Notes: generated by a model from the letters alone, not told the origin. A stretch of 64,000 nt of DNA from Minisyncoccia bacterium (GCA_050015375.1 JBEKBN010000001.1:34683-98682), one strand, 5' to 3'. Shown: positions 1,672-63,313, counted from the stretch's first letter. Translations and numbers: made by a program.

Positions 1672-1677
1672 TAAGCT

Positions 1678-3060
1678 ATGGCCAAATTTAAAAAAATCTT
1701 CGCTTCAGTTGTCATCGCCTTTTTGATTTTTGATCTCCTAGTAATTTCATCGAAAAATGCCCAGGCTGCTGCTTTTATCGGTGACCCTTTGGAATTCACC
1801 AAACAATACATAATTTACCCTCTCGTCAGAGCAATTGCCAATTCGTTTGAAAGTATTCTTATCAACAAACTCAATCAACAGATAATCGGCGCTAACGGCG
1901 CCGTGCCATCGTTCATCACCAACTGGCGCAACCATCTTTTGGATTCCGAGGCCCGAGGCAATGATGTTTTCCGCTCGGTTCTGGCTGATGCAAATATCTG
2001 CGGTTTTATGTCGAGTAACATTAAGACGGCTTTCGGCGCCGATCTGTTCGCCGGTTCGATCGCCGGCGCGACCGTGAAGGACGCCAGCGGCAAAGTCGTC
2101 TACACCAACGAGACCAATGTGCCGGGCATGGCCTCTTTCCAGGAATCGGCGAAGTGTACCCTGCCGGCAAATTTTGATGTCAATGCCTTCAATCAGGATT
2201 TTTCTAAAGGCGGCTGGGCGGCCTGGGATCAAATGCTTGAGCCCCAGAACAATCTTTTCGGCATCTACACAATGGCTTTGGGTGAACAGCAAGCTCAGAT
2301 CGCCACCGAGCAAACCTCGACTATGAACTCGGCTGTCGCCGGCAATGGATTTTTGTCAAGCAAGTTGGGCAATGCCGTGGGTTCGGCTCTAGGAGTAAGC
2401 GGATCAGCTACCGGGCCGACCGGTTGCGTTGACACGGCCGGAACCCTGTCCGGTGGGGTCCAGGGCCCTACCATGACTACCCGTTGCACCTTCATGGGTA
2501 AGGATGTTACGCCAGGTTTTCTTAAAGCTGGCGGCGCCGGTTCGGCGATAGGCACAAAAATCGGCCAACCTCAAGCAGCTAAAGAAATTACGGATGTTGT
2601 GTTGAGTCTTTTTAATGACGTGCTTAAGGTGGTCGCGGACGCGACCGGCTCGGTTGGCAACTATCTGGGTCAAGCATCATACGACGCGACTGTCGGCTCC
2701 TTACCTGGCTTTAGCGAAACCCAGAAACAAGCCGGCGCCAGCGACACCCAGATCAATCAGGTCCAGCAACAGGTCAATCAAACCTCGGCTCAACTCGGTC
2801 AAAAAGAAAGCGCTACGGCAAGCGCCGCCAGTGGCACTTGCAGTTCGACTTGCATGGCTACCAAAGCGACGACCTGCACAACTAACAACCAGGTCACCAC
2901 TTGCAACCCAGTGACCGATCCCGTAACCGGCCAGACAACACAAAGTTGCCAGACCAGCACCGACCCAACCGGCTACAACGCCTGCATGGCCCAAGCCCAG
3001 ACCGATTGTAACGCTCAATGCCCGGTCGTGCCTACAGTAAGTATTCCGCCTCCGCCCTAA
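1678..3060 (+). CDS. secreted Gly-rich protein with Thr/Cys-rich C-terminal tail, hypothetical
   Basis: Signal peptide MAKFKKIFASVVIAFLIFDLLVISSKNAQA. C-terminus TCSSTCMATKATTCTTNNQVTTCNPV...CNAQCP. First gene of the T4SS-like block. Confidence 0.45.
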   Translation: MAKFKKIFASVVIAFLIFDLLVISSKNAQAAAFIGDPLEFTKQYIIYPLVRAIANSFESILINKLNQQIIGANGAVPSFITNWRNHLLDSEARGNDVFRSVLADANICGFMSSNIKTAFGADLFAGSIAGATVKDASGKVVYTNETNVPGMASFQESAKCTLPANFDVNAFNQDFSKGGWAAWDQMLEPQNNLFGIYTMALGEQQAQIATEQTSTMNSAVAGNGFLSSKLGNAVGSALGVSGSATGPTGCVDTAGTLSGGVQGPTMTTRCTFMGKDVTPGFLKAGGAGSAIGTKIGQPQAAKEITDVVLSLFNDVLKVVADATGSVGNYLGQASYDATVGSLPGFSETQKQAGASDTQINQVQQQVNQTSAQLGQKESATASAASGTCSSTCMATKATTCTTNNQVTTCNPVTDPVTGQTTQSCQTSTDPTGYNACMAQAQTDCNAQCPVVPTVSIPPPP

Positions 3061-3067
3061 GACCTAA

Positions 3068-5230
3068 ATGCGACTATTTAAAATAAGCAAAAAAATCATT
3101 CCGATAATAGTCATCGTCGCGATGCTGATTTTGATTTTGCCCCAGCATCAAGCGAAGGCGGATCTTCCGGGCCTTGGTAGCATGGCAATAGGCGGCGTCG
3201 CGAGTTGGATAATGAACACAATCATCACAGGAGTGGGTACAGCGATTAGTTGGTCAGCTGGGCTTTTGGATTCTTTCATCGGCATGACTTCTTTTAACCC
3301 CCCATCCCAAGTTCAGGACAGTTGGAAAATGATTCGTGATTTCGTAAACATGTTTTTTATCCTGGTTCTGGTTATTATGGCATTCGGCACGATATTCGAT
3401 CTCCAAAAATATAACTATAAAACATTACTTTCGAGTTTTCTAATTGCTGCGATTTTTGTGAATTTTAGCTATGCAATCGGCATTTATATCTGGAACATCT
3501 CCAATGGCCTCGCTCATATTTTTTTGAGCACGATTCAGGGCGCAAGTAACCAAAGCGTGAGCGCAATCCTTGGCAACGGGCTAAGCTTGGGTCATTTTGT
3601 GACTTGGAACGGAGGCAATGCCGTAAATATCAGCGGCATTTCCAGCACGACAAGCATCGGGGCAGGTTCACCAATAATTACTTCCGTCTTCTTTATAGTA
3701 TTTTTAGTGATGGCTTTGATGGCAATCTTGTCGGCCGCTATTTTTGCTTTCATCAGAATCCCGTTCATCTGGTTCTTTCTTATCATTTCTCCAATCGCAT
3801 GGTTAAGTTATGCCCTGCCTAGCATGCGAAGCGCCGGTTGGAGCAAATGGTGGAAAAATTTTTTAGGCTGGTGTTTCTTTTTGCCGATTTATCTTTTTTT
3901 CCTGATGTTCGCCGTGATTTTTATTCATGTCAAGGACTCGAAAATTACCGAGATCGCAAAACAGCAGGCATTTTTGGCAGGCCCGCAGGCGCAATATGGC
4001 AACACTATGGCTGGGTTATTCCAGGCCATCGGTTTGAACGATATCTTCTTTTTTGTCGTAACGATTATTATCATGGTTTACGGATTGGCCATGGCGAAAA
4101 CGGTTGCCTTCGCGGGTGGTAGCCGAGCCATGAAAATTTTCGGTGGCATTGAGAACGGGGTCAAGCGCTACTTCCCGGGTTCGAGAACGGCACGAGGTAT
4201 ATACGCAGGTGCAAAGCAGGGATATGAGGCCAGAGTCGAAAGAGCCAAGACCGAGGGCGTTGGTTTTGGACGATTTAGAATTGGCGGTGAGAGTAAACTA
4301 AAAGGGACAATTGCCGAAATGGGCGGTTTTGGTGAAAGAGGGGCCAGAGAAAAACAGTTCGCCGCCGAAGTTAAAAAATTAAAAGAATCGATGGCAAATA
4401 TCGGCGATATCGAGCGTATCAGAAAAATGTCTCAGTCTGGCTCGGCTTACCAACAGCTTGCTGCAGCCGAAATACTCAGAGAAAGAAATGCGATGTCCGG
4501 CCAGGAGATGATTGATACGTACAAAAAATACCGAGAGAATAAGGCGTATGTTTCCGCGACTAGATTTATCAGTAGTGTAGACTTCAAGGATCTATCTGGG
4601 GAAGAAAGACGTGCCATCAACGCGAATCTGAATGTTACAGATCTTGAAGCTAAAAGAAAAATCGCCAAAGTCATGGCAGAAAAGGGCGACTTTAAGGCAC
4701 CACTGGGAACACCGGATAATATGAAAGTTCAAGCCGTCGCCGACCAGATTACTAAGGCCGCCGAATTGTTTGCTACGGCTGGGGACAGATTGGATATCTT
4801 GCAGAAAGCGAAGAAAGGTAACATCGAAGCAGCTGCTATAGCCACTGTTAATCTTAAGATACAGGATAAGGATGGGAATATTATTAAAACCACCGATGAC
4901 GCTATCACTAAGCTATTCATTGATTCTATCAGAAAAGCAAAGGTTGACGATATGATCGATCTTTCAAAGGAAACCCTCGCGAATGAGGAAGTAAAAAAGA
5001 TAATTCTGGATAAATTAGACAGAGATTTTCGGACAAAAAATGATTTTATGAATCGAGCAACTGATAAACAAAAAATGGCATTGGGTCTTCCTACTGGCCA
5101 ACAACCACCGCAGACATTCAATGTGGGCGAGGGAATTAGTAGCAATGTGGAACGAGACGGAAATCCGAAAGTAATTCTCGCTTCCGAAAATAATGTCATC
5201 GACCTCCGCAATAAATCTGGCGATGATTAA
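3068..5230 (+). CDS. polytopic membrane protein, VirB6/TrbL-like (putative T4SS channel component)
   Basis: 720 aa. N-terminal signal/TM, then about 6-7 hydrophobic helices in the first 300 aa, and a long charged C-terminal domain. Position upstream of VirB3-like/VirB4 genes. Confidence 0.4.
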   Translation: MRLFKISKKIIPIIVIVAMLILILPQHQAKADLPGLGSMAIGGVASWIMNTIITGVGTAISWSAGLLDSFIGMTSFNPPSQVQDSWKMIRDFVNMFFILVLVIMAFGTIFDLQKYNYKTLLSSFLIAAIFVNFSYAIGIYIWNISNGLAHIFLSTIQGASNQSVSAILGNGLSLGHFVTWNGGNAVNISGISSTTSIGAGSPIITSVFFIVFLVMALMAILSAAIFAFIRIPFIWFFLIISPIAWLSYALPSMRSAGWSKWWKNFLGWCFFLPIYLFFLMFAVIFIHVKDSKITEIAKQQAFLAGPQAQYGNTMAGLFQAIGLNDIFFFVVTIIIMVYGLAMAKTVAFAGGSRAMKIFGGIENGVKRYFPGSRTARGIYAGAKQGYEARVERAKTEGVGFGRFRIGGESKLKGTIAEMGGFGERGAREKQFAAEVKKLKESMANIGDIERIRKMSQSGSAYQQLAAAEILRERNAMSGQEMIDTYKKYRENKAYVSATRFISSVDFKDLSGEERRAINANLNVTDLEAKRKIAKVMAEKGDFKAPLGTPDNMKVQAVADQITKAAELFATAGDRLDILQKAKKGNIEAAAIATVNLKIQDKDGNIIKTTDDAITKLFIDSIRKAKVDDMIDLSKETLANEEVKKIILDKLDRDFRTKNDFMNRATDKQKMALGLPTGQQPPQTFNVGEGISSNVERDGNPKVILASENNVIDLRNKSGDD

Positions 5231-5234
5231 AATT

Positions 5235-5260
5235 AAAAAAGCGCGATTTGTCGCGCTTGT
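5235..5260. terminator. bidirectional hairpin terminator between convergent genes
   Basis: AAGCGCGA-TTTG-TCGCGCTT perfect 8-bp stem. A-tract on its left gives a U-tract for the minus-strand gene ending at 5289. Confidence 0.5.
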
Positions 5261-5288
5261 CAGTTTGTTCGCTTCTTCTTGAGCGGGT

Positions 5289-5912
5289 TTAAGCTCTCCT
5301 GTAGTTTAGCACATAACGAACAAGGTCTTTTATATAAGTATCTGAAACTTCACATCCTTTATATTCCTGAAATAGCACTCCGCCATACCACCCATTTTCT
5401 GGTCGCCTCCCCCTGAAACCACGCTTATGGACGCAAACCTCAAAATAAAAAGACCTTTGATCGGAATTATAGATAATATGGACAAGCCTATCCCTAAAAC
5501 GAGTGCTCGGGTCAAAGAGTAGATAACACTCTGAAACAGTCCATTGTTTATCCAGATTTTTTCCGTATACCTTGCTCTCGGTTCGAATTTCCATTCCGGA
5601 GTTAAGTTCTGATTCGATTAACTTCTTGACCCTGAGAGCGACCGGTTTAACTATTTGGAGATTGGGCTCATTTTCATATTTTTCTTGTAGTTTTTCAGAT
5701 TCCCTATGCTCTGTCTCTCTGTCTCGCCGCCTTTTTTCTTCTTCCCGTAGCTGTTCTTCGCGCTGTTCTTGTTTTTCTTGTAACAAATAAGCCCTATAGC
5801 CCTCCTGTTGACCCTCCCACTCTTCTCGGCTTTGGAATAAGCCTGGCGACGAACCGGGCTGATGTCCTCTAAGACCCCTTTCGTATCCATCGGTTTTCTT
5901 AGACATATTCAC
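5289..5912 (-). CDS. hypothetical protein with charged coiled-coil N-terminus
   Basis: 207-aa ORF on the opposite strand inside the T4SS-like block; E/R/K/Q-rich N-terminal half. No recognisable motif. Confidence 0.4.
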   Translation of the reverse strand: MNMSKKTDGYERGLRGHQPGSSPGLFQSREEWEGQQEGYRAYLLQEKQEQREEQLREEEKRRRDRETEHRESEKLQEKYENEPNLQIVKPVALRVKKLIESELNSGMEIRTESKVYGKNLDKQWTVSECYLLFDPSTRFRDRLVHIIYNSDQRSFYFEVCVHKRGFRGRRPENGWYGGVLFQEYKGCEVSDTYIKDLVRYVLNYRRA

Positions 5913-5992
5913 ACTCCTTTTGGTTGTTTTCTGCTATAATTGTATAGGTGCTGACTGTCTAGGACACTAACAGGGCCTGATAATTAAGTCAA

Positions 5993-6316
5993 ATGCGTTT
6001 TCAAGTTCCACAATTCATCGAGACCGAGACCAAGCTCGTCGGGCCGCTCACGCTCAGGCAGTTTATATACATCGGCGCCGGGGCGCTGATAATTTTCCTT
6101 CTCCGGTATGTTCTTACCAGCGTTTTTTTGTGGATCATGGCGGACATTCCCATCGGCGCTCTGGCCGCCGGTCTGGCGTTCTACAAAATTGACAGCGTGC
6201 CGTTGCCCCGCTATCTGGTGTCGGCGACAAGTTTTCTTTTCGGCGGCAAAAAATATATTTATAAAAAAGAACCGCCGGATAATTCCGATGTAAATCAACT
6301 CTTGAATAAAAATTAA
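5993..6316 (+). CDS. small 2-TM membrane protein (VirB3/PrgI-like position)
   Basis: 107 aa with two hydrophobic helices (GAGALIIFLLRYVLTSVFLWI, ADIPIGALAAGLAFY). Sits immediately upstream of VirB4-family ORFs, as VirB3/PrgI does in conjugation loci. Confidence 0.35.
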   Translation: MRFQVPQFIETETKLVGPLTLRQFIYIGAGALIIFLLRYVLTSVFLWIMADIPIGALAAGLAFYKIDSVPLPRYLVSATSFLFGGKKYIYKKEPPDNSDVNQLLNKN

Positions 6317-6317
6317 A

Positions 6318-6968
6318 ATGCCGCCAAACACCAAACCAGACAATAAAATAGCCACGACCAAGGATTTCGTCCAGATCGCCGATATCCGCGATTCGGTTTT
6401 GATCTTAAAAGACGGCGGTTTGAAATCTCTCATCGAGGTCAATTCGATGAACTTCGAGCTCAAATCAGCCGACGAGCAGACGGCTATTATTCAGTCGTTC
6501 CAGAATTTCGTGAACTCGCTGGATTTTTCTCTCCAGATCGTGGTCAATTCCCGAAAACTCGATCTCAAGCCCTATTTGAAATTCGTTGACGGCATCATCG
6601 CCGAGCAGAAAAACGAGCTTTTGAAGATCCAGGCCATTGATTACAGCCGGCTCCTGACCGGCCTGACCGAACTCTCCAACATTATGGAAAAAAAGTTCTA
6701 CGTCGTGGTGCCGTTTTTCGGCGTCGAGACGCCAAAGACCAAAGCCGGTTTTCTCAGCGCTTTCAAGGGCGTTCTGACGCCATCGGAATTTGCCAAAGCG
6801 ATCAGCGATGAGCAATTCCAGACCTACAAAACTCAGCTCGACCAACGAATAGAACTTATCGCCGGCGGCATCAGCGCTCTGGGACTTGAGGCCAAAGTTC
6901 TCAAAGATGACGAACTGAAAAAACTTTTCTATTCATATTACAATCCCGGGCAACATCTGGAAGCGTAA
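6318..6968 (+). CDS. VirB4-family N-terminal domain-like protein (possible 5' part of a split VirB4)
   Basis: 216 aa. DFVQIADIRDSVLILKDGGLKSLIEVNSMNFELKSADEQTAIIQSFQNFVNSLDFSLQIVV resembles the N-terminal region of Gram-positive-type VirB4/ConE/Orf16 ATPases, from memory only. In frame with the next ORF; separated from it by one TAA. Confidence 0.4.
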   Translation: MPPNTKPDNKIATTKDFVQIADIRDSVLILKDGGLKSLIEVNSMNFELKSADEQTAIIQSFQNFVNSLDFSLQIVVNSRKLDLKPYLKFVDGIIAEQKNELLKIQAIDYSRLLTGLTELSNIMEKKFYVVVPFFGVETPKTKAGFLSAFKGVLTPSEFAKAISDEQFQTYKTQLDQRIELIAGGISALGLEAKVLKDDELKKLFYSYYNPGQHLEA

Positions 6969-6983
6969 AACTCAAAACGAAAC

Positions 6984-8753
6984 ATGCCATTTTTCGGAAA
7001 GAAAAAAGAAAAAGTTCAGGAAGATACCGCCAAGAAAACCTTCGACGATATTTTGGCGCCTTCGGCGATAAATCTTTCGGCAAATTACATCCAGATCGGC
7101 GACAAATTCGCTCGGACCTTGTTTGTCATCACTTATCCGAGATACCTCAATACCAATTGGTTCTCGCCGATAATCAACATGGACCAGCCGATGGATATTT
7201 CTATTTTCATTCACCCCTTGGACACCGGCGTTATTTTGAAAAAATTACGTGACAAGCTTGGACGCCTTGAAGCCGAGGTCATGGAAGACGAGTCGGCCGG
7301 CAAGGTCCGCGATCCGGTCAAGGAAACGGCGGTCAACGACATTGAGGAGCTTCGCGACAAACTCCAGCAGGGCACCGACAGGTTTTTCGAATTCGGTTTG
7401 TATGTCACGCTTTATGGCGACTCGGTCAAGGAACTTGACGAAGTTGAGAATAAAGTTCGGGCGATTCTGGACGCCCAATTGGTCTACACTAAGCCGGCGA
7501 CTTTCCGGATGAAAGAAGGTTTTTTCTCGACCATGCCTTTGAGCAACGACCAGTTGGATGTCCATACTTCGCTTAATACCGAACCGGTTTCTTCGCTGTT
7601 CCCGTTCGTCTCTTACGACCTGACCACCGACAAAGGGATACTTTACGGCGTCAATTCGCATAACAATTCTCTGGTGCTTTTCGACCGGTTCAGTTTGGAA
7701 AATTACAACATGGTCGTCTTCGGTAAATCCGGCGGCGGCAAATCCTACGCCGTTAAATTGGAGATAATGAGAAGTTTGATGCTTGGCGTTCAGGTGTTCG
7801 TTATTGATCCTGAGAATGAATTCAAATATCTTGCCGATACCGTCGGCGGCACTTCAATAAAAATATCCATTTCGTCAGAGGACCACATCAATCCTTTCGA
7901 CCTGCCCAAACCCCAGCCAGACGAATCGCCGGCCGATGTTTTGCGTTCACATATTTTGGACCTGATCGGGCTTTTGAAACTGATGCTTGGCACGATCACT
8001 TCCGACGAGGAAGCTATTCTTGACGAAGCCGTCATTCAGACCTATGCCATCAAAGATATCACCCAAAATTCCGATTTTTCCAGCGCCACGCCACCTCTCA
8101 TGTCCGATCTCTTGAGCGTGCTTGAAGGCATGACCGGCGCCCAGTCGCTGGCTGTCCGGCTGAAAAAATATACCGAGGGCAGTTTCGCCGGTTTTTTGAA
8201 CAACCCGACCAATGTCCGGCTTGATAATCAGTTGGTCGTTTTCGGCATCCGCGACATGGAGGAAGAGTTGCGGCCGGTGGCGATGTATCTGGTTCTAAAT
8301 TACATCTGGGCTCAAGTCCGGAGCGACATAAGAAAAAGATTGCTGGCGGTGGATGAGGCCTGGGTTTTGCTGAAATACGAGGTTGGCGGCGCTTTTCTTC
8401 TCAATATCGCCAAAAGGGCCAGGAAATATTATCTGGGCCTGACGACTATCTCCCAGGACATTCCCGATTTCATGAATTCGGCTTACGGCAAACCGATCGT
8501 CACCAACTCATCGCTCCAATTGCTTTTGCGCCAGTCGCCGGCTTCCATTGACCTTGTCCAACAAACATTCAATCTGACCGATTCCGAGAAATTTTTCCTG
8601 TTGGAATCGCGAGTCGGCCACGGGCTTTTCTTCGCCGGCCAGAATCATGTCGCTCTCCAGGTCGTTTCTTCTTACGCCGAAGACCAGGTCATTACTTCCG
8701 ACCCGCGCCAACTGGCCGACATCGAAGAGGCCAAAAAAGAACTAGAAAAGTAG
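6984..8753 (+). CDS. virB4: VirB4/TrbE/CagE-family conjugal-transfer ATPase (ATPase core)
   Basis: Walker A VVFGKSGGGKSYAV. Walker B LLAVDEAWVLL (DEAW typical of VirB4/TraC). Region before Walker A (KFARTLFVITYPRYLNTNWFSPII...DISIFIHPLD) is typical of VirB4. Confidence 0.7.
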   Translation: MPFFGKKKEKVQEDTAKKTFDDILAPSAINLSANYIQIGDKFARTLFVITYPRYLNTNWFSPIINMDQPMDISIFIHPLDTGVILKKLRDKLGRLEAEVMEDESAGKVRDPVKETAVNDIEELRDKLQQGTDRFFEFGLYVTLYGDSVKELDEVENKVRAILDAQLVYTKPATFRMKEGFFSTMPLSNDQLDVHTSLNTEPVSSLFPFVSYDLTTDKGILYGVNSHNNSLVLFDRFSLENYNMVVFGKSGGGKSYAVKLEIMRSLMLGVQVFVIDPENEFKYLADTVGGTSIKISISSEDHINPFDLPKPQPDESPADVLRSHILDLIGLLKLMLGTITSDEEAILDEAVIQTYAIKDITQNSDFSSATPPLMSDLLSVLEGMTGAQSLAVRLKKYTEGSFAGFLNNPTNVRLDNQLVVFGIRDMEEELRPVAMYLVLNYIWAQVRSDIRKRLLAVDEAWVLLKYEVGGAFLLNIAKRARKYYLGLTTISQDIPDFMNSAYGKPIVTNSSLQLLLRQSPASIDLVQQTFNLTDSEKFFLLESRVGHGLFFAGQNHVALQVVSSYAEDQVITSDPRQLADIEEAKKELEK

Positions 8754-8762
8754 GCACGCATC

Positions 8763-9155
8763 ATGGCTTACGAAGACGAAGTTCAAATGCAATTGGCGGC
8801 AGATCGCGCTCGTCAACAAAAAGCAGAAGAGGAATCTGCCCGCCAGCAATCAGCACCCGAACAAAAACCGATGGGCTGGGGTGTTTTTTTAATTAGTTTG
8901 GTTTTGAGTTTGATTGCCGATCTCTGTGAGATTTCGATCGTGGCCGCGCCACTTGTTCTTTTCATTGATGTCATCCTCGGTTTTATTCTTGGATTTTCAG
9001 CCGGCGCCAGAAAGCAATGGAAAAAATGGATAGCTGGTTTTTTACCGATCCCTTTGGTAAGAGTTGCTCTGTTGATCTGGGCGTTTGTTTCGTCCCGAAG
9101 TGAAAAATTACAAGCGATCTCCAATATCGCCTCGAAGGTCGCACCAAAAGTATGA
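8763..9155 (+). CDS. small membrane protein, hypothetical
   Basis: 130 aa. Charged N-terminus, then two hydrophobic helices. Immediately follows virB4. Confidence 0.4.
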   Translation: MAYEDEVQMQLAADRARQQKAEEESARQQSAPEQKPMGWGVFLISLVLSLIADLCEISIVAAPLVLFIDVILGFILGFSAGARKQWKKWIAGFLPIPLVRVALLIWAFVSSRSEKLQAISNIASKVAPKV

Positions 9156-10228
9156 GATTGAAATCACTGATCATTTTTGTATCAATATTCGTAATCGCCA
9201 TGATTTCTTTTGGTATTGGTTTCTCTATCCTCAACAAACCGCCGGATTCCTCCAATCTCGCCGACTTGTCGCTGGCGGGGAATCCTTTGATAAACCGGTT
9301 CGTCTCCGACGCGCCCGAAATTACCGTCAAGCCGACCGGGGCGGTCAAGTTATCAAACGACACCGGTGAATATTCGATCCTCTCGCCCGACAAAAACAAC
9401 CTCCTTTTTTACGAGCCCCAAACCGGTCAGATACATTCGATAGACATCGCGTCATCGCTTGAAGGCAACGTCGTCGGCTCGACGCCGGCTTATCAATTAA
9501 AACCCGGCCTCACAAATTTGATCTGGTCCAGCGACCGGAACGAAATTATCGCCACGGGTCCGAAAGGATTCGTATATTATGACCTCAAAAATATCAAGAC
9601 GGTAAATCTCGACGCCGACATTAACCAAATCGTTTTCAAAAATGGTTCGTCGGTTCCCGGCGAAGCCGATATCGCTTATATGTCCGTCTCGCCCGACACC
9701 AATGTCGGCGGGATCTATATCCTCAACGCCGCCACCGGTGAAAAGAAAAAGATCTTCAACATCCAAACCGACAACTGGCAGATAAGTTGGCCGACAGATA
9801 GCAAGATCGGCCTTATGATAAACGGAGGTTTGTTTTTGCTCGATATTGCCTCCGGAGAATTGCAAAGAATGGATCAGAAATATTCCGCCGACGAAGTCAG
9901 CTGGTCGCCGGATGGAAAAAAATTGATCTATTCTTCCCAAAACAAACTCTACTTTTTGGACATTGCTTCCGGTCGCGAGACGGACCTTGATCTCGTCGCC
10001 AGTCCTTCGGATTGCGTCTGGGGTTCATTAGGAGCGGTTTATTGCATCACGGTTGATTCGTTCGTATCCTTCAACTCATTGGTCATGACGCCTGAGCTGG
10101 TGGCTGTTGCCGCTAATCCGTTTGGTCCCGCTGTCGCCGAGCTTAGCGTGGATAGCGCCGCCGGTTATTTGGTGTTCAGAGAAACCGGCTCGAATAAGTT
10201 TTATGGTATTTATTTCACCCCATGGTGA
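9152..10228 (+). CDS. membrane-anchored PD40/TolB-like beta-propeller repeat protein
   Basis: N-terminal TM (LIIFVSIFVIAMISFGIGF). Repeated ...SPDxxxLxY.. units (WSPDGKKLIYSS, MSVSPDTNVGGIYI) typical of PD40/WD40-like propellers. 4-nt overlap with the upstream gene. Confidence 0.5.
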   Translation: MRLKSLIIFVSIFVIAMISFGIGFSILNKPPDSSNLADLSLAGNPLINRFVSDAPEITVKPTGAVKLSNDTGEYSILSPDKNNLLFYEPQTGQIHSIDIASSLEGNVVGSTPAYQLKPGLTNLIWSSDRNEIIATGPKGFVYYDLKNIKTVNLDADINQIVFKNGSSVPGEADIAYMSVSPDTNVGGIYILNAATGEKKKIFNIQTDNWQISWPTDSKIGLMINGGLFLLDIASGELQRMDQKYSADEVSWSPDGKKLIYSSQNKLYFLDIASGRETDLDLVASPSDCVWGSLGAVYCITVDSFVSFNSLVMTPELVAVAANPFGPAVAELSVDSAAGYLVFRETGSNKFYGIYFTPW

Positions 10229-13167: not shown

Positions 13168-13250
13168 CCCCATTAGAGAGTGTTGATTAATCTTGTTTGT
13201 CTCCAAATTTCGGGGTTATTTTTCTAATTCACCCTCTCTAACGGGGTTGA
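13168..13250. repeat. CCCGTTAGA...TCTAACGGG-family palindromic element; right arm forms the 3' end of rnpA
   Basis: CCCCATTAGAGAG (13168-80) ... CTCTCTAACGGGG (13238-50) inverted termini with one A/G mismatch. Lies between the rnpA stop and the yidD start. Confidence 0.55.
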
Positions 13251-16611: not shown

Positions 16612-16618
16612 TCGTGGA

Positions 16619-16684
16619 CCCCGTTAGAGTCCACGCCCGCGCTTGCGCGTCCGTAGGACTTGGGCGGGTCTGACTCTAACGGGG
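16619..16684. repeat. CCCGTTAGA...TCTAACGGG-family palindromic element (copy a)
   Basis: CCCCGTTAGAGTCCACGCCCGCGCTTGCGCGTCCGTAGGACTTGGGCGGGTCTGACTCTAACGGGG. About 90% identical to the reverse complement of the 19120-19183 copy. Confidence 0.7.
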
Positions 16685-16965
16685 TGGATAGTTTGAAATC
16701 AAAACTCGATTCTCTCAAACAAAAATTGACCGCCAACGAGGAGGCGGATAAAAAACTGAGAGCCGATATTAACGGCGTCCTGGAGGCGATATTCCGGAAC
16801 CAGCGGCTTGGACCCGGACAGATCAGAGAGTTTCATCTCAAGAACGGGGTCTTGTTTTTGGAGGCAAAAAACAAGGTTGTCGCCAACGAACTTTTTCTCA
16901 AAAAAGAAGAGCTCAAAGCGCTTCTTCAAAAAAACAAAGACATCAAAGACGTGGTGATAAGATGA
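16684..16965 (+). CDS. DUF721/DciA-like small protein (start codon uncertain)
   Basis: About 95 aa. C-terminal NGVLFLEAKNKVVANELFLKKEELKALL resembles DUF721. Gene position after dnaN matches B. subtilis yaaB. Track start 16660 (TTG) lies inside the hairpin; GTG at 16684 or TTG at 16693 more likely. Confidence 0.4.
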   Translation: MDSLKSKLDSLKQKLTANEEADKKLRADINGVLEAIFRNQRLGPGQIREFHLKNGVLFLEAKNKVVANELFLKKEELKALLQKNKDIKDVVIR

Positions 16966-16977
16966 GAAGATTTATGG

Positions 16978-19119
16978 CTAGTTGGTTGACGCGGGTGTTG
17001 GCGCCGGTGTCGGTAGAGGCGTCATATTTATCTGGCCCGTGTTCATGGCCCATCTCTCTACGACCGCTTCCCAATTTTTGAATTGTGGATCGTCTGATGG
17101 ATTTGTCGGCGGCGGGCCTTGGGGGTCCGTTTTGTCAACGTAATATAAAATCGAATGGATGCCGTCAGGCCCGAGATACTGGCCGTTGAGCATAATTTTA
17201 TCCGTCTGGACCGGATCGGGCTTGATAAAATTTTCTACCGGCGTGCCATCAAGCGCCCGCGACATGAACTCATGCCACATTGGGCCGGCGGCCGAAACAC
17301 CGGCGCCGGCGGCGGTCATGGAACTGTTGTCATTATTGCCGGTCCAGACGCCCGCCGCCAAAGATGGCGTGTAGCCGATCAGCCAGCCGTCGCGGTTCTC
17401 CTGAGTGGTGCCGGTTTTAGCCGCCACCGGCCGGTCGGGGAAATACAGGGCGCTGTTGTAACCGAATTCCGGCGCCCGGGCCTTGTTGTCGGAAAGCATA
17501 TCTGAGATCGTTCTGGCGATCTGAGGATCCAGCACCCGCTCTTCGTCTTTCCGGTATTCTTCCAAAACTGTGCCGTCATTGGCGACGACTTTCAAGATAA
17601 AATTCTGAGCTTCTTTGATGCCGTCATTGGCGAAAACGCTGTATGCTGAAACCATATCCACCAATTTCACTTCGCCGCCGCCAAGGACCAGTGACAACCC
17701 GTATCGGGAGCGGTCGTTGAGAGTGGTGATGCCCATTTGATGAGCGAGGTTGATGGTGTCGTCAAGACCGGCCAAATACAAAACCTGAACCGACGGCACA
17801 TTGAGAGACATCCCTATAGCTTGGCGGGCGGTGACCGGTCCCCGGAATTTGCCGTCGTAATCTTGGGGATGGTAGCAAGCGACAGTACCAGTCGGGTCGA
17901 AACTCTGATCACCCGACGGATCGCAAGTCGGCGTGAATTCGGTTTTGAGATCGAACAAAACTGTCGAGTCGGTAAAACCCTTTGAGATAAGTTCGGCGTA
18001 AGCGAAGGGTTTGAAAGAAGAACCCGGCTGTCTGGGCGCGGTGGCGACATTGAAATTCCCCTGGTTGGCGATATCAAAATAATCACGGGAGCCGACCATG
18101 GCCAGGATCTGTCCGGTCTTAGGATCGGCCGCCACCAAAGCGGCGTTGGTGGCTTTATATTGTTTGGCGTTGATGTTGCCGTATTTGGTGACGACATCCT
18201 GAGCGATACTTTGAAGGTTGGTGTCGAGAGTGGTGTAAACTTTCAGGCCGCCGTTATCAACCATGTCCTCGCCGTATTTATCAATAAGATATTCTTTGAC
18301 CATGATCACAAAATGGGCCGCCTGAAAATCCTTTGCCGGCGGAATGAAATCCGGTTTGATTTTGATAGCGACATTGTAGTCGTCGGCGGTAATGTAGCCG
18401 AGATCTTTCATCCGTCCCAGAACGTAATTCCGGCGGGCGATGAGTTCGTCGGTGTGGTTGCCGTAGGGCGAGTAATAGGTCGGCGCTTGGGGAATGGCTG
18501 CTAGCGTTGCCGCTTCGGACAAAGTCAGGTCAGAAGCGTTTTTGTTGAAAAATGTCTGGCTGGCGGCCTCGATGCCGTAAGCGTTTGAGCCGTAGGGGAT
18601 CTGGTTGAGATACATCCAGAATATCTGGTCCTTGGTGTATTTTCTCTCGATCTCAATGGAGAGAGCCACTTCTTTTATCTTTCGGGGAATGGTTTTCTCG
18701 TCGGATAAAAGAGCGTTTTTGACAAGCTGTTGGGTGATGGTCGAGCCGCCTTGGGACGCTTTCAAGGTAGTGACGTCCTTGTAAGCCGCCCGCAAAATTC
18801 CCCAAATATCTATCCCCTGGTGGTTGTAAAAGTCGCTGTCCTCGGCGGCTAAAGTCGCTTTCCGGATGACATCGGGCATCTGATCCCAGGGAATGATCGT
18901 TCTTTTTTCTTCGCCGTGGACATCGTAAAGGAGATTGGTGCCGGTCCGGTCGTAGATCTTGGTTGACTCGCTCAATTTGCGGGACATGATGACCGAGGGA
19001 TCGGGCACTTGGCCGGCATAATAGACGAAAAGCCCGGCCAAAACAACAATACCGATAACGATGAGGCAGACGGCGTAGAGCAATAGCTTCCTAAACAATC
19101 TGAAGCGGTTTTTTTTCAT
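16978..19119 (-). CDS. bifunctional penicillin-binding protein 1A (glycosyltransferase + transpeptidase)
   Basis: TM anchor, then GT motif AAEDSDFYNHQGID and TP motifs GSSFKPF / SxN / KTGT. ATG at 19119 (MKKNRF...); the longer track ORF reads through the upstream palindromic element. Confidence 0.85.
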   Translation of the reverse strand: MKKNRFRLFRKLLLYAVCLIVIGIVVLAGLFVYYAGQVPDPSVIMSRKLSESTKIYDRTGTNLLYDVHGEEKRTIIPWDQMPDVIRKATLAAEDSDFYNHQGIDIWGILRAAYKDVTTLKASQGGSTITQQLVKNALLSDEKTIPRKIKEVALSIEIERKYTKDQIFWMYLNQIPYGSNAYGIEAASQTFFNKNASDLTLSEAATLAAIPQAPTYYSPYGNHTDELIARRNYVLGRMKDLGYITADDYNVAIKIKPDFIPPAKDFQAAHFVIMVKEYLIDKYGEDMVDNGGLKVYTTLDTNLQSIAQDVVTKYGNINAKQYKATNAALVAADPKTGQILAMVGSRDYFDIANQGNFNVATAPRQPGSSFKPFAYAELISKGFTDSTVLFDLKTEFTPTCDPSGDQSFDPTGTVACYHPQDYDGKFRGPVTARQAIGMSLNVPSVQVLYLAGLDDTINLAHQMGITTLNDRSRYGLSLVLGGGEVKLVDMVSAYSVFANDGIKEAQNFILKVVANDGTVLEEYRKDEERVLDPQIARTISDMLSDNKARAPEFGYNSALYFPDRPVAAKTGTTQENRDGWLIGYTPSLAAGVWTGNNDNSSMTAAGAGVSAAGPMWHEFMSRALDGTPVENFIKPDPVQTDKIMLNGQYLGPDGIHSILYYVDKTDPQGPPPTNPSDDPQFKNWEAVVERWAMNTGQINMTPLPTPAPTPASTN

Positions 19120-19183
19120 CCCGTTAGAGTTAGCCCGCCCAAGTCCTCCGGACGCGCAAGCGCGGGCGTGAACTCTAACGGGA
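19120..19183. repeat. CCCGTTAGA...TCTAACGGG-family palindromic element (copy b, inverted relative to copy a)
   Basis: CCCGTTAGAGTTAGCCCGCCCAAGTCCTCCGGACGCGCAAGCGCGGGCGTGAACTCTAACGGGA. Abuts the PBP1A start codon. Confidence 0.7.
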
Positions 19184-19227
19184 TTCATAATCTTTGGATA
19201 AGCATATTTTGCCATAAAAAATCGATT

Positions 19228-35376: not shown

Positions 35377-35422
35377 GTACTAATTTTAACACTCAAAAGG
35401 TCTAATTTCTAAAAACTTATTC

Positions 35423-35490
35423 ACCCCGGTTAGAAGTCGGAAGTTTTTGACTTCCGCCGGCTCGCGTTAGCGAGCCGGACTTCTAACGGG
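35423..35490. repeat. CCCGTTAGA...TCTAACGGG-family palindromic element (variant GTTAGAAG)
   Basis: CCCCGGTTAGAAGTCGGAAGTTTTTGACTTCCGCCGGCTCGCGTTAGCGAGCCGGACTTCTAACGGGG; two internal hairpins. Confidence 0.6.
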
Positions 35491-35585
35491 GTTCACCTTA
35501 TTGACTTCGGTTTAGCAGTAATCACCCGCCCCGTCCAGAAAATTATCCACAGTCGGGATTGGCCTCCGACGAATTCGCATCCCCT

Positions 35586-35799
35586 CAGCCTTTTCTCGAG
35601 ACGCTTCGACTCTATGCGCCCAGCGGGCGCCTCATTGTCCTCCGCGTTTACGCTCCGGACAATCAAGGACGTCTCTCGCTTATCGTCGAATCCGTCCTCG
35701 TCCCTCCGCAGGCCTGCGGAGGGACACCTTGCTCGGACGTGAAAAACTTTGATTACAAGGATTTTTCACTGCGTCTTCGACGGTACTCGAGAAAAGGCC
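35586..35799 (+). ncRNA. candidate structured ncRNA / structured repeat, copy A (homologue of 53431-53687)
   Basis: Terminal inverted repeat CAGCCTTTTCTCGAG / CTCGAGAAAAGGC. Shares conserved blocks with copy B: CTCGAGACG.T.CGACTCTATG, CCCAGCGGG, ACAATC, CTTATCGTC, CCGTCCTCGTC, GACACCTTGCTCGGACGT, CTTCGACGGTACTC. Variable hairpins sit between blocks; one stem shows a compensatory change. Confidence 0.5.
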
Positions 35800-35899
35800 A
35801 AAGGGACGCCGATTTACATTCGGAGCCAAGCCCGACTTCTTCATGGAGGTTATTGGTTCTTTCAAAATTGGCTTGAGAGATATAGAATCGAAACATAGT

Positions 35900-41424: not shown

Positions 41425-41559
41425 CAAAAGAAGCGAAGCCGTTCTAAAATTAGAGTGACTTCGACGGCATCCCGCTAAAAGCGGGATGCAGGGTATTCGC
41501 AAGACCACGGCTGGTCAGTGTCTGGCATAAGTATAGCAGGTATAAAGTCGTTTGTCAAG

Positions 41560-41574
41560 CCCGTTAGAGTTGGC
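41560..41574. repeat. truncated copy (left arm only) of CCCGTTAGA palindromic element
   Basis: CCCGTTAGAGTTGGC, same start as the 19120 copy (CCCGTTAGAGTTAGC). No matching right arm downstream. Confidence 0.35.
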
Positions 41575-46469: not shown

Positions 46470-46481
46470 GTTTGTATTTAT

Positions 46482-46546
46482 CCCGTTAGAGGTAATCAAC
46501 CCTCGGGTTGATGCCGATTCGGATGTCCGAATCGGACCTCTAATGG
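46482..46546. repeat. CCCGTTAGA...TCTAACGGG-family palindromic element (copy e)
   Basis: CCCGTTAGAGGTAATCAACCCTCGGGTTGATGCCGATTCGGATGTCCGAATCGGACCTCTAATGGG; two internal hairpins. 12 nt upstream of the 3D-domain gene start. Confidence 0.6.
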
Positions 46547-46663
46547 GAATAAAAAACGGCCTATTAAGCCACTTTTTATGATAAAAGCCCTATTTGGGCT
46601 TCATGCTTCTAATACTATCACAGACCGTAATATTTGTCAACCCATGTTCGGGATTCTGTCAAC

Positions 46664-46740
46664 CCCGTTAGAAACAGCCCGCCCCAGGGCCTTTTGGGCG
46701 CGCTCACGTGCGGGCGTGGTTTCTAACGGGATCAAGTAAG
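46664..46740. repeat. CCCGTTAGA...TCTAACGGG-family palindromic element (copy f)
   Basis: CCCCGTTAGAAACAGCCCGCCCCAGGGCCTTTTGGGCGCGCTCACGTGCGGGCGTGGTTTCTAACGGG. Its CACGCCCGC...GCGCG...GGGCGGG core resembles copies a/b. Confidence 0.6.
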
Positions 46741-52866: not shown

Positions 52867-53220
52867 AGTTCATATTTTGGAGGATTTTATGATCATTTCA
52901 CCTTGTAACGGATTAAGAAAATGCTGGCGACATCCCGGCGGATGCGCTCGGATTGTTATTGATCCGCGGGATGAATACGCCACTCGTATGCGAAATAAAG
53001 CAAGGCGACGTCGTTTATGGCATATCGTTTTGGAACAATATCGAATTTGTAAAAAGTGGCGCTTAAATCCAATCCCGCCAGAACTTCATTTGCAAGTTGT
53101 TCTTCTTTTGGAACAAGTTCAAATGGAAACGGAACAGAGATTTTTAGAGAAGGAACAAGGAAAAAGTAATGGTTAAAATTAACTCATCCTGACCAGTTTA
53201 TCTGGTCTTTTTCATTTGTG

Positions 53221-53292
53221 TGGGCAGTGTAGGAATCGGACCTACGGCCTTTTGTGTGTAAAACAAACGTTCTGCCACTGAACTAACTGCCC
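53221..53292 (-). tRNA. tRNA-Val (anticodon TAC), T-loop TCCGATT
   Basis: Acceptor GGGCAGT/ACTGCCC, D-arm GTTC-AGTGGCA-GAAC, anticodon loop TTTACAC, T-arm GTAGG-TCCGATT-CCTAC, discriminator A. Confidence 0.7.
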
Positions 53293-53297
53293 AATTG

Positions 53298-53371
53298 TGC
53301 GCGTGCCTGGACTCGAACCAGGGACCCCGTCTTTATAAGAGACGTGCTCTAACCGACTGAGCTACACGCGC
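53298..53371 (-). tRNA. tRNA-Ile (anticodon TAT; reads AUA)
   Basis: Acceptor GCGCGTG/CACGCGC, D-arm GCTC-AGTCGGTTA-GAGC (Ile-like), anticodon arm CGTCT-CTTATAA-AGACG, T-arm CCTGG-TTCGAGT-CCAGG, discriminator A. Confidence 0.6.
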
Positions 53372-53430
53372 ATCACGTTCAATAAAATCATAGATTTTTT
53401 CGGAGAATTGGTCAATCCAACAACCAGATT

Positions 53431-53687
53431 GCGCCCGTTAGTTTCGAGAGTACCGTCGAAGCCGCAGTCCCGATTTGCGTAATCGCAAATCGCGGACGTC
53501 CGAGCAAGGTGTCGTGTTGTAATTTCCGCAGAGCGAAGCGGGTGGGAAATTACAACACGACGAGGACGGCGAGACGATAAGTGGAGACTTCATCTATTGA
53601 GCCGAGGATTGTCAGCAGACAAACGAGGCGAAATGATGTTCCCGCTGGGAACATAGAGTCGGAACGTCTCGAGAAACCAACAGGCGC
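53431..53687 (-). ncRNA. candidate structured ncRNA / structured repeat, copy B (homologue of 35586-35799); between ftsH stop and tRNA-Ile
   Basis: Minus-strand sequence aligns block-for-block with copy A. Larger variable hairpins: 17-bp stem GTCGTGTTGTAATTTCC/GGAAATTACAACACGAC and CCGCGATTTGCG-ATTA-CGCAAATCGGG. Closing stem GTTTCGAGAG/CTCTCGAAAC plus CCCGTTAG-like termini. Abuts the ftsH stop codon. Confidence 0.5.
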
Positions 53688-53689
53688 AA

Positions 53690-55513
53690 TTATGCCTTGA
53701 CCAATTCGTAGAACTCTTTTTGCTCGATGGTCTCTTTTTCCATGAGAACCCCGGCAATGCGCTCAAGAATTTCCATTTTTTTTGTCAGAACCTCTTTAGC
53801 TTTTTTGTGGCCATTCTCAATCAGACGGCTTATTTCGGAATCAATGAGATTAGCTGTGGCTTCGGAATAATCATGATCGGTATTGAGGTCTTTGCCCAGA
53901 AATACCAATTCTTCTTTTTCGCCGAAAGTCACCGGCCCGATCTTCTCCGACATGCCGTATTGGGTGACCATTTTTCGGGCAAGTTCGGAAGCGACTTTGA
54001 GGTCGTTGGCGGCGCCGGTGGTCAGCTCATTGAATTTTAATTGCTCGGCGGTATAGCCGGCAAGTAAGATCGCCAACTCGGATTCAAATTCCGAACGTGA
54101 ACGCAAATGTTTGTCCTCGGTCGGCAATTTCAGAGTATAACCGCCAGCTCGGCCGCGCGAGACGATCGAGACTTTGTGGATCGGGTCGGCGTGAGGCACC
54201 GAGACCGTGACCAAAGCATGGCCGGCTTCGTGAAAAGCGGCGATATTTTTTTCTTTCTCGCTGAAAATGTGCGACCGGCGCTCGGGACCGAGAATGACCT
54301 TTTCAATGGCTTCGAACAAATTGTCCTGGGTAATTTCTTTTTGATTTTTTCTGGCGGCCAGGATCGCGCCTTCATTTATCAAATTTGCCAGATCAGCGCC
54401 GGAAAATCCGGGTGTTCTTTCGGCGACCTTGCGAAGATCAATGCTTTTGGCCAAAGGTTTGTCCTGAGCGTGGATCTTCAAGATCGCTTCGCGGTCGTTT
54501 ATCGAGGGTTCGTCAAGAATTATCCGGCGGTCGAAACGGCCTGGTCGGAGCAAAGCCGGATCAAGAATATCGGGCCTGTTAGTTGCCGCAAAAATGACCA
54601 CCGCTTCGTCGGTGCCAAAACCGTCCATCTCGACAAGGATCTGATTCAAAGTTTGTTCGCGCTCGTCATGGCCGCCGCCAAGTCCGGCCCCGCGATGTCG
54701 GCCGATGGCATCTATCTCGTCAATAAAAATTATCGAAGGCGCGGTTTTTTTCGCCGTTTCAAAAGTATCGCGGACACGTTGGGCGCCGACGCCGACGAAC
54801 ATTTCCACGAATTCAGAGCCAGAAACATAGTAGAAAGGGACAGCGGCTTCGTTAGCGACAGCTTTGGCCAGGAGCGTTTTGCCCGTGCCTGGGGCGCCGA
54901 CAAGTAAAATTCCCCGCGGCATGCGGGCGCCAAGTTTTTGGAATCTCCTCGGATCGCGCAAGAATTCAACCATCTCGTTGACCTCTTCCTTGGCTTCCAC
55001 CAAGCCGGCCACATCCTTGAAAGTGATCTTCTTTTTTCCGTCACCCTCGCCGCCGGCGATCTTGGCTTTTGATTTGCCGAAGGAGAAGGCCGTGGCCGCG
55101 CCCCGCTGGGCCTGGCGGAAAAAGAACCAGAAGATCAACAGAACAAAAAGAAAAGGCAGAACGATGGGTAGTACATTCGTCAAAAAAGCGGTCAGTCCCG
55201 ATTCATTTTTGATCTCAACATTAACCGCCGCCAATTTGGTTTTGTCGGCGCCAAGATTGGTCAAGCTGTCGCCGACGCCGACTCCGGTTTCCTTTTTGGA
55301 GGCCTCCTGGGTGTTGTCGTTGAGAACGATTGTGAGGTTGTCGGTCTGGACGGAGATACTTTTAACTTTGCCATCATTGATCTGGCCGACGACCGTGCTC
55401 AAGGTGACATTGCTGACTTTGCTTGCCGGCGGGGATTGGAAAAGCGCAAAAACCCCCGAAACGACGATCAGTATGACGAAAACTATAAGGATGTATTTGA
55501 TAAGGGATCTCAT
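53690..55513 (-). CDS. ftsH: ATP-dependent zinc metalloprotease FtsH
   Basis: TM anchors; Walker [16 protein letters not shown]; Walker [10 protein letters not shown]; SRH; zinc-binding HEAGHAL. Confidence 0.95.
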
Positions 55514-62590: not shown

Positions 62591-62667
62591 CTCTATGAAT
62601 CCCGTTAGAGAGCGTAGGCCAATATTGCGTTACTTGCCGATTGGCTTAGGTTATCTTATACGGGACT
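62591..62667. repeat. CCCGTTAGA...TCTAACGGG-family palindromic element (copy g) in 5' leader of MBL-fold gene
   Basis: CCCGTTAGAGAGCGTAGGCCAATATTGCGTTACTTGCCGATTGGCTTAGGTTATCTTATACGGGACTCTCTAACGGG; starts 13 nt after the -10 box, ends 10 nt before the ATG. Confidence 0.6.
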
Positions 62668-62677
62668 CTCTAACGGG

Positions 62678-63313
62678 ATGAATATCCAGTGGTATGGCCA
62701 ATCCTGTTTCCGGCTGGAGAGCAAAGGTTTGAGTATTTTGATCGACCCTTTTGTCAAGGATATCGGTCTGAAACCGCCCCGCCTGAACGACAATATTTAT
62801 CTGGTCAGCCACGACCATCCCGACCACAACAATGTCGCCGGTGCGGCCGAGGACGCGTTCATCGTCAAAGGCCCGGGCGAATACGAGAAATCTGGCGTGT
62901 ATATCGAGGGCATCCGGTCATTCCATGACAATGTTGAGGGCAAGGAGCGGGGACTCAATACGATCTACACGATCAAATTTGATGAAATCCACCTGTGCCA
63001 TCTGGGAGATATCGGACAAAACAAATTGACCGACGAGCAGATCGAAGCCATCGGCGACATTGATATTCTTTTCATACCGGTCGGCGGAACCTACACCATT
63101 GACGGCGCCCAAGCCGCTGACATGGTCAAAGAGATCGAGCCGAAGATCATTATCCCGATGCATTATAAAATCCCAGGTTTGAATATTAAAATAGACGGTC
63201 CCCAGAAATTTTTAAAAGAGATCGGATTGAAACCGGAAGAGAACGAGATTTTTAAGATCAATAAAAAAACATTGCCAATGGAAGAAATGAAATTGGTGAT
63301 GCTGAAAATATAA
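62678..63313 (+). CDS. MBL-fold metallo-hydrolase
   Basis: LVSHDHPDHNN (HxHxDH) plus downstream His/Asp ligands; 211 aa. Confidence 0.75.
   Translation: MNIQWYGQSCFRLESKGLSILIDPFVKDIGLKPPRLNDNIYLVSHDHPDHNNVAGAAEDAFIVKGPGEYEKSGVYIEGIRSFHDNVEGKERGLNTIYTIKFDEIHLCHLGDIGQNKLTDEQIEAIGDIDILFIPVGGTYTIDGAQAADMVKEIEPKIIIPMHYKIPGLNIKIDGPQKFLKEIGLKPEENEIFKINKKTLPMEEMKLVMLKI

Follow-up and report, generated by a model that had tools for sequence, protein, structure and literature searches.

A structured non-coding element behind ftsH in a Minisyncoccia bacterium is best explained as a copy of a new, lineage-restricted repeat family resembling bcr1 and MITEs in behaviour

The structured element of about 260 bases that lies directly behind ftsH in a Minisyncoccia bacterium is one of at least five copies, and these copies are best explained as a new family of interspersed, structure-conserving, non-coding repeats which behave like bcr1 and the MITEs. 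We consider the chance somewhat better than even that the copy behind ftsH (copy B) is one insertion of this lineage-restricted, multi-copy structured repeat, and not a part of a conserved ftsH-tRNA transcript. Copies B and A are present in the analysed stretch of 64,000 nucleotides (hereafter, the window), copies D and C on a further contig (L366), and copy E on a JGI contig (L355).

Copy B as a whole, from the 5' arm to the 3' arm of its closing helix P1, occupies 53427-53691 on the plus strand, as determined from its folds, its nhmmer match and its match to R1, a covariance model built from the five copies (53427-53693, 296 bits, E 2.7e-91). The ftsH gene lies on the minus strand (53690-55513, ORF call) and its product is 100% identical to the NCBI FtsH of Minisyncoccia bacterium; copy B reaches or overlaps the stop codon of this gene (53690-53692) with its P1 3' arm. 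On the other side, also on the minus strand, are the genes for tRNA-Ile(UAU) (anticodon tat, 53297-53371) and tRNA-Val(UAC) (tac, 53220-53292), and a promoter-like site, TTGACC-17-TATGAT (53387-53415, minus strand, 10/12), is present between copy B and tRNA-Ile. The coordinates and neighbours in the initial annotation agree with these ORF and tRNA positions: the element was said to lie 2 nt from the ftsH stop codon, as it does when the end is taken as 53687, and about 60 nt from tRNA-Ile, where we measured 59 nt. Its limits of 53431-53687 are slightly narrow, as the closing helix reaches 53427-53691, so that the outermost pairs overlap the first bases of the ftsH stop codon. A tRNA-Ile(UAU), unusual for bacteria, beside tRNA-Val(UAC) downstream of ftsH is a conserved arrangement in this group of Patescibacteria, with the tRNA-Ile(UAU) genes at 53297-53371 in the window, L117:11891-11963 and L119:3050-3123.

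The structure proposed for this spacer is genuine, as 53427-53691 folds far better than its shuffles. For 53431-53687 (257 nt), the energy was -111.5 kcal/mol on the plus strand (z -7.5) and -113.5 kcal/mol on the minus strand (z -9.8), and none of 200 shuffles was as good in either case. On the plus strand, the P1 5' arm (53428-53450) holds CCCGTTAG at 53434-53441 and pairs with the 3' arm, GTCTCGAGAAACCAACAGGCGCAA (53668-53689), with the outermost pairs extending into the ftsH stop codon. P1 encloses Domain 1 (53451-53579), where P2 in the consensus fold (53451-57 with 53573-79) surrounds a UAAU-loop hairpin (~53465-53499), the block GUCCGAGCAAGGU and a long hairpin, P4 (~53507-53565), and Domain 2 (53581-53665), which consists of a 2-bp P5, P6 (GACUU/GAGUC), P7/P7a and the hairpin P8 with its GCU loop (53638-53652). 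The P8 loop is complementary to the AGC in block GAGCAAGG (53500-53512), and the same is seen at the same places in other copies; in copy C, where the loop is GCC, the block has GGC, which matches this complementarity. Loop and block could thus form a loop-junction tertiary pair, as suggested by this single change. A kink-turn in the internal loop GUCC-GAGCAAGGU-GUC / GAC-GA-GGAC was considered and rejected, as its bulged strand, judged by eye, is off consensus.

A second copy is present in inverted orientation. Copy A lies at about 35575-35812 with the minus strand of the window as its sense strand (alignment; R1 204.8 bits over 35575-35809), between a divergent gene for an SNase-like nuclease and pilB/T2SSE on the same strand, and nhmmer detected copies A and B only within the window. 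Scanning of metagenome contigs with CCGCTGGGNNCATAGAGTCG gave two true homologues, copies D and E. The HtrA encoded beside copy D led to the ENA contig k141_518335 (L366), which belongs to the same ENA assembly as the window contig and carries copy D again (L366:11089-11355; also L357:7850-8121) together with a fifth and more divergent copy, C (L366:3477-3710); copy E lies at L355:~173-434. Copies C, D and E were located by R1 and nhmmer. The window contig and L366 are one genome (MAG), as seen from the shared assembly, from a tetranucleotide correlation of 0.981 (0.979 between the two halves of the window), from the lack of any duplicated genes in common, and from the accessions of the window-contig FtsH (MGD0976770.1) and the L366 HtrA (MGD0977313.1), which are 543 apart and both assigned to Minisyncoccia bacterium.

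The copies share 61-79% pairwise identity and are therefore old, so that no recent transposition is documented. When R1 was run over 172 kb, of which 10 kb were further sequence of the window's contig and 43 kb belonged to four relatives, nothing was obtained beyond the five copies except two Logan contig ends: in run SRR7028199, an independent assembly of the same organism, contigs L372 (1-127) and L368 (6034-6079) stop inside copies A and D, respectively. Contigs ending within the copies indicate that the element breaks assemblies, as is typical of repeats. The five copies in the ~110 kb of the MAG are all intergenic and are dispersed without a transposase gene inside them, and the ORF lists gave no ORF conserved among the five. 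Long blocks, such as UCCGAGCAAGGUGUC and CAUAGAGUCG, are identical in four copies, and hairpins are swapped or lost whole: copy C is without the first hairpin and also without part of the most conserved block, the long hairpin is short in copies A and E, P7 is different in copies A and C, and copies B and D have near-identical hairpins despite being on different contigs.

The consensus fold of the five copies comprises 78 pairs in 10 helices with 4 branch points, P1 contributing 23 pairs, and all copies have a closing helix of at least 23 bp and two multi-helix domains. In the consensus, Domain 1 has P2 around the UAAU-loop hairpin and the long hairpin, and Domain 2 has P5 and P6 around P7/P7a and the GCU-loop hairpin. 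Standard pairs occupy 91.9% of the structure cells in the five copies. Both sides of the pair had changed in 31 of the 78 pairs, as compared to 15.0 ± 2.4 in shuffles, of which none in 500 reached 31, although these counts represent few independent events, as the five copies come from one organism or population. Sliding the partners left only 3-8 pairs with a both-side change. Such changes were seen in 13 of 23 pairs of P1, in 3 of 6 pairs of P2 (which is 100% paired) and in all 4 counted pairs of P3, while the U·G pair of P6 was kept in all five copies. The conservation of paired columns (0.67) equalled that of unpaired columns (0.68), so that the copies show the classic contrast between conserved loops and variable stems only weakly. 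The predicted folds show each copy to be a self-contained folding module, with P1 joining both ends around the two domains, and the both-side changes in the aligned sequences show this predicted fold to be kept across copies of 61-79% identity.

We compared the two strands for signs of selection on the fold. In copies A, C, D and E, the sense strand (which at B is the plus strand) had the better minimum free energy, by 11.5-17 kcal/mol, and copy B itself was neutral (-116.4 vs -117.8 kcal/mol). G·U outnumbered A·C 29 to 17 over the union of the pairs of both strands (one-sided binomial p ~0.05), and 14 to 8 when counted by columns, which is not significant. The consensus fold had an energy of -61.1 kcal/mol on the sense strand as compared to -52.1 kcal/mol on the other. 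The strand evidence is moderate overall, and by these fold energies and pair counts the plus-at-B orientation, which is antisense to ftsH and the tRNAs, is probably the selected strand. The selected fold would then be a single-stranded form of the plus strand at B, either RNA or single-stranded DNA.

The spacer between ftsH and the tRNAs was compared in relatives of the organism. In L117, the closest relative with DNA (FtsH 79% identical), the gene order is ftsH, tRNA-Ile(tat), tRNA-Val(tac), pseudouridine synthase and L19; the ftsH-to-tRNA-Ile spacer is 63 nt in L117 as well as in L118 and L119, and the element is absent. The L117 spacer contains only a promoter-like TTGAAG-17-TAGAAT, identified by eye. 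The sites of other copies gave a similar picture. In L370 (HtrA 81%) only 39 nt separate htrA from the next gene, without the element. L374, which falls in the 90%-identity HtrA cluster and shares genes of 67-81% nucleotide identity, has homology with L366 that breaks off precisely where htrA ends, at its stop codon, and where recO begins, at its ATG; its recO lies 4 nt after its upstream gene. R1 had no match in the contigs of the relatives. Presence or absence of the element at the same site thus differs between relatives at ftsH (L117), htrA (L370, L374) and recO (L374), and since relatives were without it at all three comparable sites, the element is lineage-specific there, although with relatives of only 79-81% protein identity (FtsH, HtrA) its loss from them would also be possible. 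The initial annotation had suggested a processed stable RNA in the ftsH-tRNA spacer and had named a short, unstructured spacer in close relatives as the sign of a mere repeat insertion; the synteny check found a 63-nt spacer without the element, and by this criterion copy B is a repeat insertion rather than an RNA conserved in this spacer.

In the place of copy D, L374 has an unrelated, near-perfect nested palindrome of ~205 nt (L374:11090-11300; JGI Ga0129287_10001070), with a 24-bp closing stem with TCTCGAG, a bidirectional terminator at its centre and an energy of -153 kcal/mol (z -15.8). Elements of this kind seem to have a hot spot in the hairpin position behind htrA. TCTCGAG was not significantly enriched (9 found vs 6.9 expected).

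The position of the copies relative to genes bears on whether the element is transcribed with its neighbours. Seen in the sense orientation, copies B, D and E each meet a convergent gene (ftsH, htrA and a gene of 266 aa, respectively), whose stop codon the P1 3' arm touches or overlaps; the element lies 0-3 nt past this opposite-strand stop codon or overlaps it. Copy C precedes recO on the same strand, 7 nt from its start codon. It is improbable, in our estimate, that the element is a cis-acting part of the minus-strand ftsH transcript, i.e. a 3'-UTR, terminator or processing module, possibly together with the tRNAs and processed to a stable RNA. The minus-strand version is certainly transcribed at the three copies that adjoin an opposite-strand stop codon, the minus strand of copy B folds equally well (-113.5 kcal/mol, z -9.8), and a U-rich tract follows P1 on the gene strand in copy D (AUUUUUUGG, htrA strand) and more weakly in copy B, where the minus strand continues from P1 into UCUGGUUGUUGGAUUG, U-rich without a U run, and the terminator scan lists nothing there. 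However, the relative has no such element in its ftsH-tRNA spacer, neither copy A nor copy C follows a gene in that orientation, and energy and G·U pairs favour the opposite strand in four of the five copies. Of the co-transcription proposed earlier, the part concerning ftsH stands, since with only 2 nt from the stop codon transcription of ftsH must enter the element; the part concerning the tRNAs does not, as they have a promoter-like site of their own. With TTGACC-17-TATGAT in front of them and the similar TTGAAG-17-TAGAAT in the relative, the tRNAs need no read-through from ftsH. The empty spacer in the relative, the tRNA promoter-like site and the antisense strand favoured in four of five copies leave the reading as an operon or processed RNA largely unsupported.

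For copy B as an inserted repeat, the effect on the ftsH locus would be passive: directly behind the stop codon and ahead of the tRNA promoter, both strands would carry a hairpin of ~-115 kcal/mol, which probably ends or protects the ftsH transcript. The family may spread, or may once have spread, as a non-autonomous mobile element that inserts either into the hairpin position just past a stop codon (ftsH, htrA, the 266-aa gene) or into a 5' leader (recO).

The sense strand could instead be read as that of a small-RNA gene. According to this alternative, which we regard as unlikely, the copies are an independent small-RNA gene family with their own sense-strand promoters, P1 protects the ends of the RNA, and the paralogues are kept for a function in trans, the RNA acting for example as a protein scaffold, guide or ribozyme. 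The complex multi-domain fold, the long blocks identical in four copies and the near-identical hairpins of B and D on different contigs favour this, as does the strand asymmetry, which implies an RNA antisense to the neighbours. Copy C is also preceded by a promoter with an 11/12 score (TTGATA-16-TATAAT) ending ~7 nt before P1, and copy E has TATAAC, noted by eye, at the corresponding distance. However, the promoter of copy C can simply be that of recO, and the promoter scan gave no sense-strand promoter-like site upstream of B or A. Nor is there a consistent terminator past P1, and the lack in copy C of a whole hairpin and of part of the most conserved block also counts against this alternative. 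No homologue outside the one organism or population was found by the metagenome contig scans or R1, and relatives are without the element at all comparable sites, which further argues against small-RNA genes.

Insertion of a repeat raises the question of what its ends look like. CCCGTTAG occurs 13 times in the window as compared to 0.96 expected, in palindromes whose outer stem, CCCGTTAGAG...CTCTAACGGG, is conserved while the two hairpins inside it are unrelated in sequence. Short palindromes lie at 13170-13250, 16615-16690, 19115-19187, 35420-35492, 41551-41574, 46478-46550, 46660-46732 and 62598-62680; the one at 35420-35492, beside copy A, is of the CCCGTTAG type with the outer stem conserved and two unrelated inner hairpins. 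The CCCGTTAG palindromes sit after genes and in divergent promoter regions and may be REP-like. The initial annotation had linked copy B to this family through the termini of its closing stem, suggesting one element family with the same termini and variable cargo. The exact CCCGTTAG is present in the 5' arm, at 53434-53441, but its partner is CCAACAGG and not CTAACGGG, and the letters given for the 3' arm were slightly off, the true sequence being GTCTCGAGAAACCAACAGGCGC. The link holds for the copies in the window, exactly for B and in degenerate form for A, which has a two-mismatch version of CCCGTTAG on both arms (CCCTTTGG/CTGAGGGG); it fails for C, D and E, whose outer arms are unrelated. 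L366, the other contig of the MAG, has almost no CCCGTTAG, the counts being 0-1 in L366, L355 and L357, and for the three copies outside the window the idea of common termini with variable cargo was not borne out.

Homology between copies begins at TTTTC...GAGAAAA. Outside it, the arms are complementary within each copy and unrelated between copies, so that only the internal pair TTTTC(TC)GAG / CTCGAGAAAA is conserved, and the mean pairwise column identity of P1 is 0.52. The outer ends of the five copies do not share conserved terminal inverted repeats, and the inspected flanks of all five are free of target-site duplications or direct repeats. Around copy B there is an 11-bp perfect inverted repeat, with its left arm GAATTGGTCAA at 53405-53415, overlapping the -35 of the tRNA promoter-like site, and its right arm TTGACCAATTC at 53697-53707, within the last ftsH codons; the flank duplex of -18.4 kcal/mol is marginal against -12.9 ± 3.0 in shuffles, 5% of which reach it. 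Outer pairing lengthens the hairpin of copy A to ~35535-35850, its outer flank duplex being -40.5 kcal/mol vs -22.5 ± 3.8 in shuffles, and in copy E the final codons of the adjacent gene form part of the outer arm. The outer arms fit a core that lies inside pre-existing hairpins, either palindromes or terminators. The ftsH-coding arm of the inverted repeat at copy B, the codons in the arm of copy E and the additional pairing at copy A also suggest a palindrome that grows outward as inverted copies of its flanks are added.

These outer arms are the ground for the reading that the element is a nested palindrome at the DNA level without any function as RNA, with arms renewed by intrastrand template switching and outward inverted copying, which we hold to be quite improbable. 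It would account for arms that are complementary within a copy and unrelated between copies, for the inverted repeat of copy B with its ftsH-coding arm and the neighbour codons in the arm of copy E, for the unrelated, almost perfect nested palindrome at the same htrA site of a relative, and for the equal conservation of paired and unpaired columns. It does not agree with the core, which is an asymmetric multi-branch fold of 10 helices and 4 branch points, or with G·U pairs kept in all copies, such as the U·G of P6 (5/5), and a strand bias in energy is unexpected from a purely double-stranded mechanism.

The reading as an inserted, structure-conserving repeat has a precedent in bcr1 of the Bacillus cereus group, which, according to the summary in PMC3184786 of work on bcr1 and related repeats (Okstad 2004, Klevan 2007, Kristoffersen 2011), is distributed among relatives in a non-conserved way and keeps its RNA structure through compensatory changes. 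As described in that summary, bcr1 and the present element are alike in being non-coding, intergenic, one hundred to a few hundred bases long and patchy among relatives, and in having compensatory changes (here in 31 of 78 pairs) and no protein. According to the same summary, bcr1 (~155 bp) folds into a cruciform with two stem-loops, lies between 5-bp direct repeats and is known to be transcribed (PMC3184786). The present element measures 230-270 nt, combines a long closing helix with two multi-helix domains and lacks direct repeats, and an indirect clue to its transcription is the promoter-like site before copy C. The two have no sequence relationship.

With MITEs such as Correia/NEMIS and ERIC the element shares a multi-copy, non-autonomous, intergenic nature, complementary ends that give a long hairpin, and a frequent location near gene ends. 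MITEs can act as terminators or processing sites once transcribed, a potential which the present element shares. However, the defining features of MITEs are target-site duplications and terminal inverted repeats that stay conserved from copy to copy, and since the element has neither of these two features, we describe it as working like such repeats and do not class it as a MITE. No transposase, reverse transcriptase or related autonomous element, and no parent insertion sequence with matching ends, was found by Pfam in the ~110 kb of the MAG.

Elements which insert into REP or terminator hairpins are a further comparison, e.g. IS1397/ISKpn1, which insert into REP, and class C group II introns, which insert after terminators. 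Like REP/BIME, the element lies directly behind stop codons, and P1 of copy B carries CCCGTTAG, as expected if the core is inside a palindrome. Unlike the inserters, its core is without an ORF or intron features and matches no Rfam family, and copies C, D and E are without CCCGTTAG. Insertion into an existing hairpin is what we infer from the arms.

The compact group I introns of Patescibacteria (PMC13011429) are of similar size (200-260 nt) and from the same phylum, and GAGACU...AUAGAGUC superficially resembles the R/S sequences that form P7 of group I introns (PMC13011429). In contrast to these introns, the element is intergenic, has no exon context, and its helices are fully nested with no crossing of P3 and P7; Intron_gpI gave no match at E<=10 in the four copies scanned. 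Copies B, A, D and E had no match in Rfam 15, either at the gathering score or at E<=10, and this check also covered HEARO, ROOL and GOLLD. Group I and II introns, tmRNA, RNase P, SRP, 6S, riboswitches and known ribozymes were thus set aside, as the element has no Rfam match, is multi-copy and consists of nested helices. The tmRNA gene of the organism lies at L357:3997-4397 (minus strand, Rfam 105.9 bits), ~1.6 kb from smpB and ~3.5 kb from copy D, so the repeat is not tmRNA. A retron, omega-RNA or bridge RNA was rejected since no gene for a reverse transcriptase, TnpB, IscB or IS110 is beside any copy; likewise, the Pfam analysis gave no reverse transcriptase, transposase or guide-RNA nuclease gene adjoining any copy. 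Protein coding was rejected as well, as the frames are broken in copy B, there is no conserved start or ribosome-binding site, and changes fall at base-paired positions. The profile search with the sense-frame peptide found nothing, and a 105-aa ORF over copy A matched only repetitive proteins and a translated CRISPR array.

Other pattern searches gave no homologue. The pattern CCGAGCAAGGTGN{18,48}GACGAGGAC gave at least 115 chance matches in genome contigs, from high-GC genomes, with no other motifs of the element among the matches listed, and the two-block pattern GTACCGTCGAAGN{25,55}CCGAGCAAGGTG gave none in viral and metagenome contigs. Scans of viral contigs and BLAST against phages and plasmids returned nothing or chance matches only.

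Since CPR/Patescibacteria genomes are very small and tightly packed, a non-coding element of 230-270 nt in at least five copies is a noticeable investment for a CPR genome. The family indicates that structure-conserving repeats, selfish or regulatory, colonise reduced genomes too, preferentially at the hairpin position behind stop codons. Such repeats break assemblies and can pass for conserved operon RNAs. The conserved core of 200 nt might even represent a new functional class of structured RNA in CPR, either an RNA-defined mobile ribozyme or protein-binding module, or a guide or bridge-type RNA acting in trans for a recombinase whose gene is elsewhere, although we think this improbable. If it were so, the long closing helix would be a handle for folding independent of the landing site, and should the fold act as RNA, a new RNA class would be gained in a phylum with an almost unexplored RNA biology. 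The covariance model R1 is a direct means to survey the repeat family.

Further features were noted in the contigs analysed. Relatives have inteins in GyrA and FtsH (L117:820-4845; P0005, P0018), with FtsH of 1040-1061 aa and intein/LAGLIDADG Pfam domains, and L355 has a free-standing LAGLIDADG-type ORF at 1263-1766, its motif recognised by eye. Window positions ~1-10200 and the contig beyond the window start (L373:1-19600) hold genes for a serine recombinase and for PrgI-like, TraC-like and VirB4/TraG-like ATPase proteins, along with many ORFs without a Pfam match. By its gene content, this block looks like an integrated conjugative or type-IV-secretion element.
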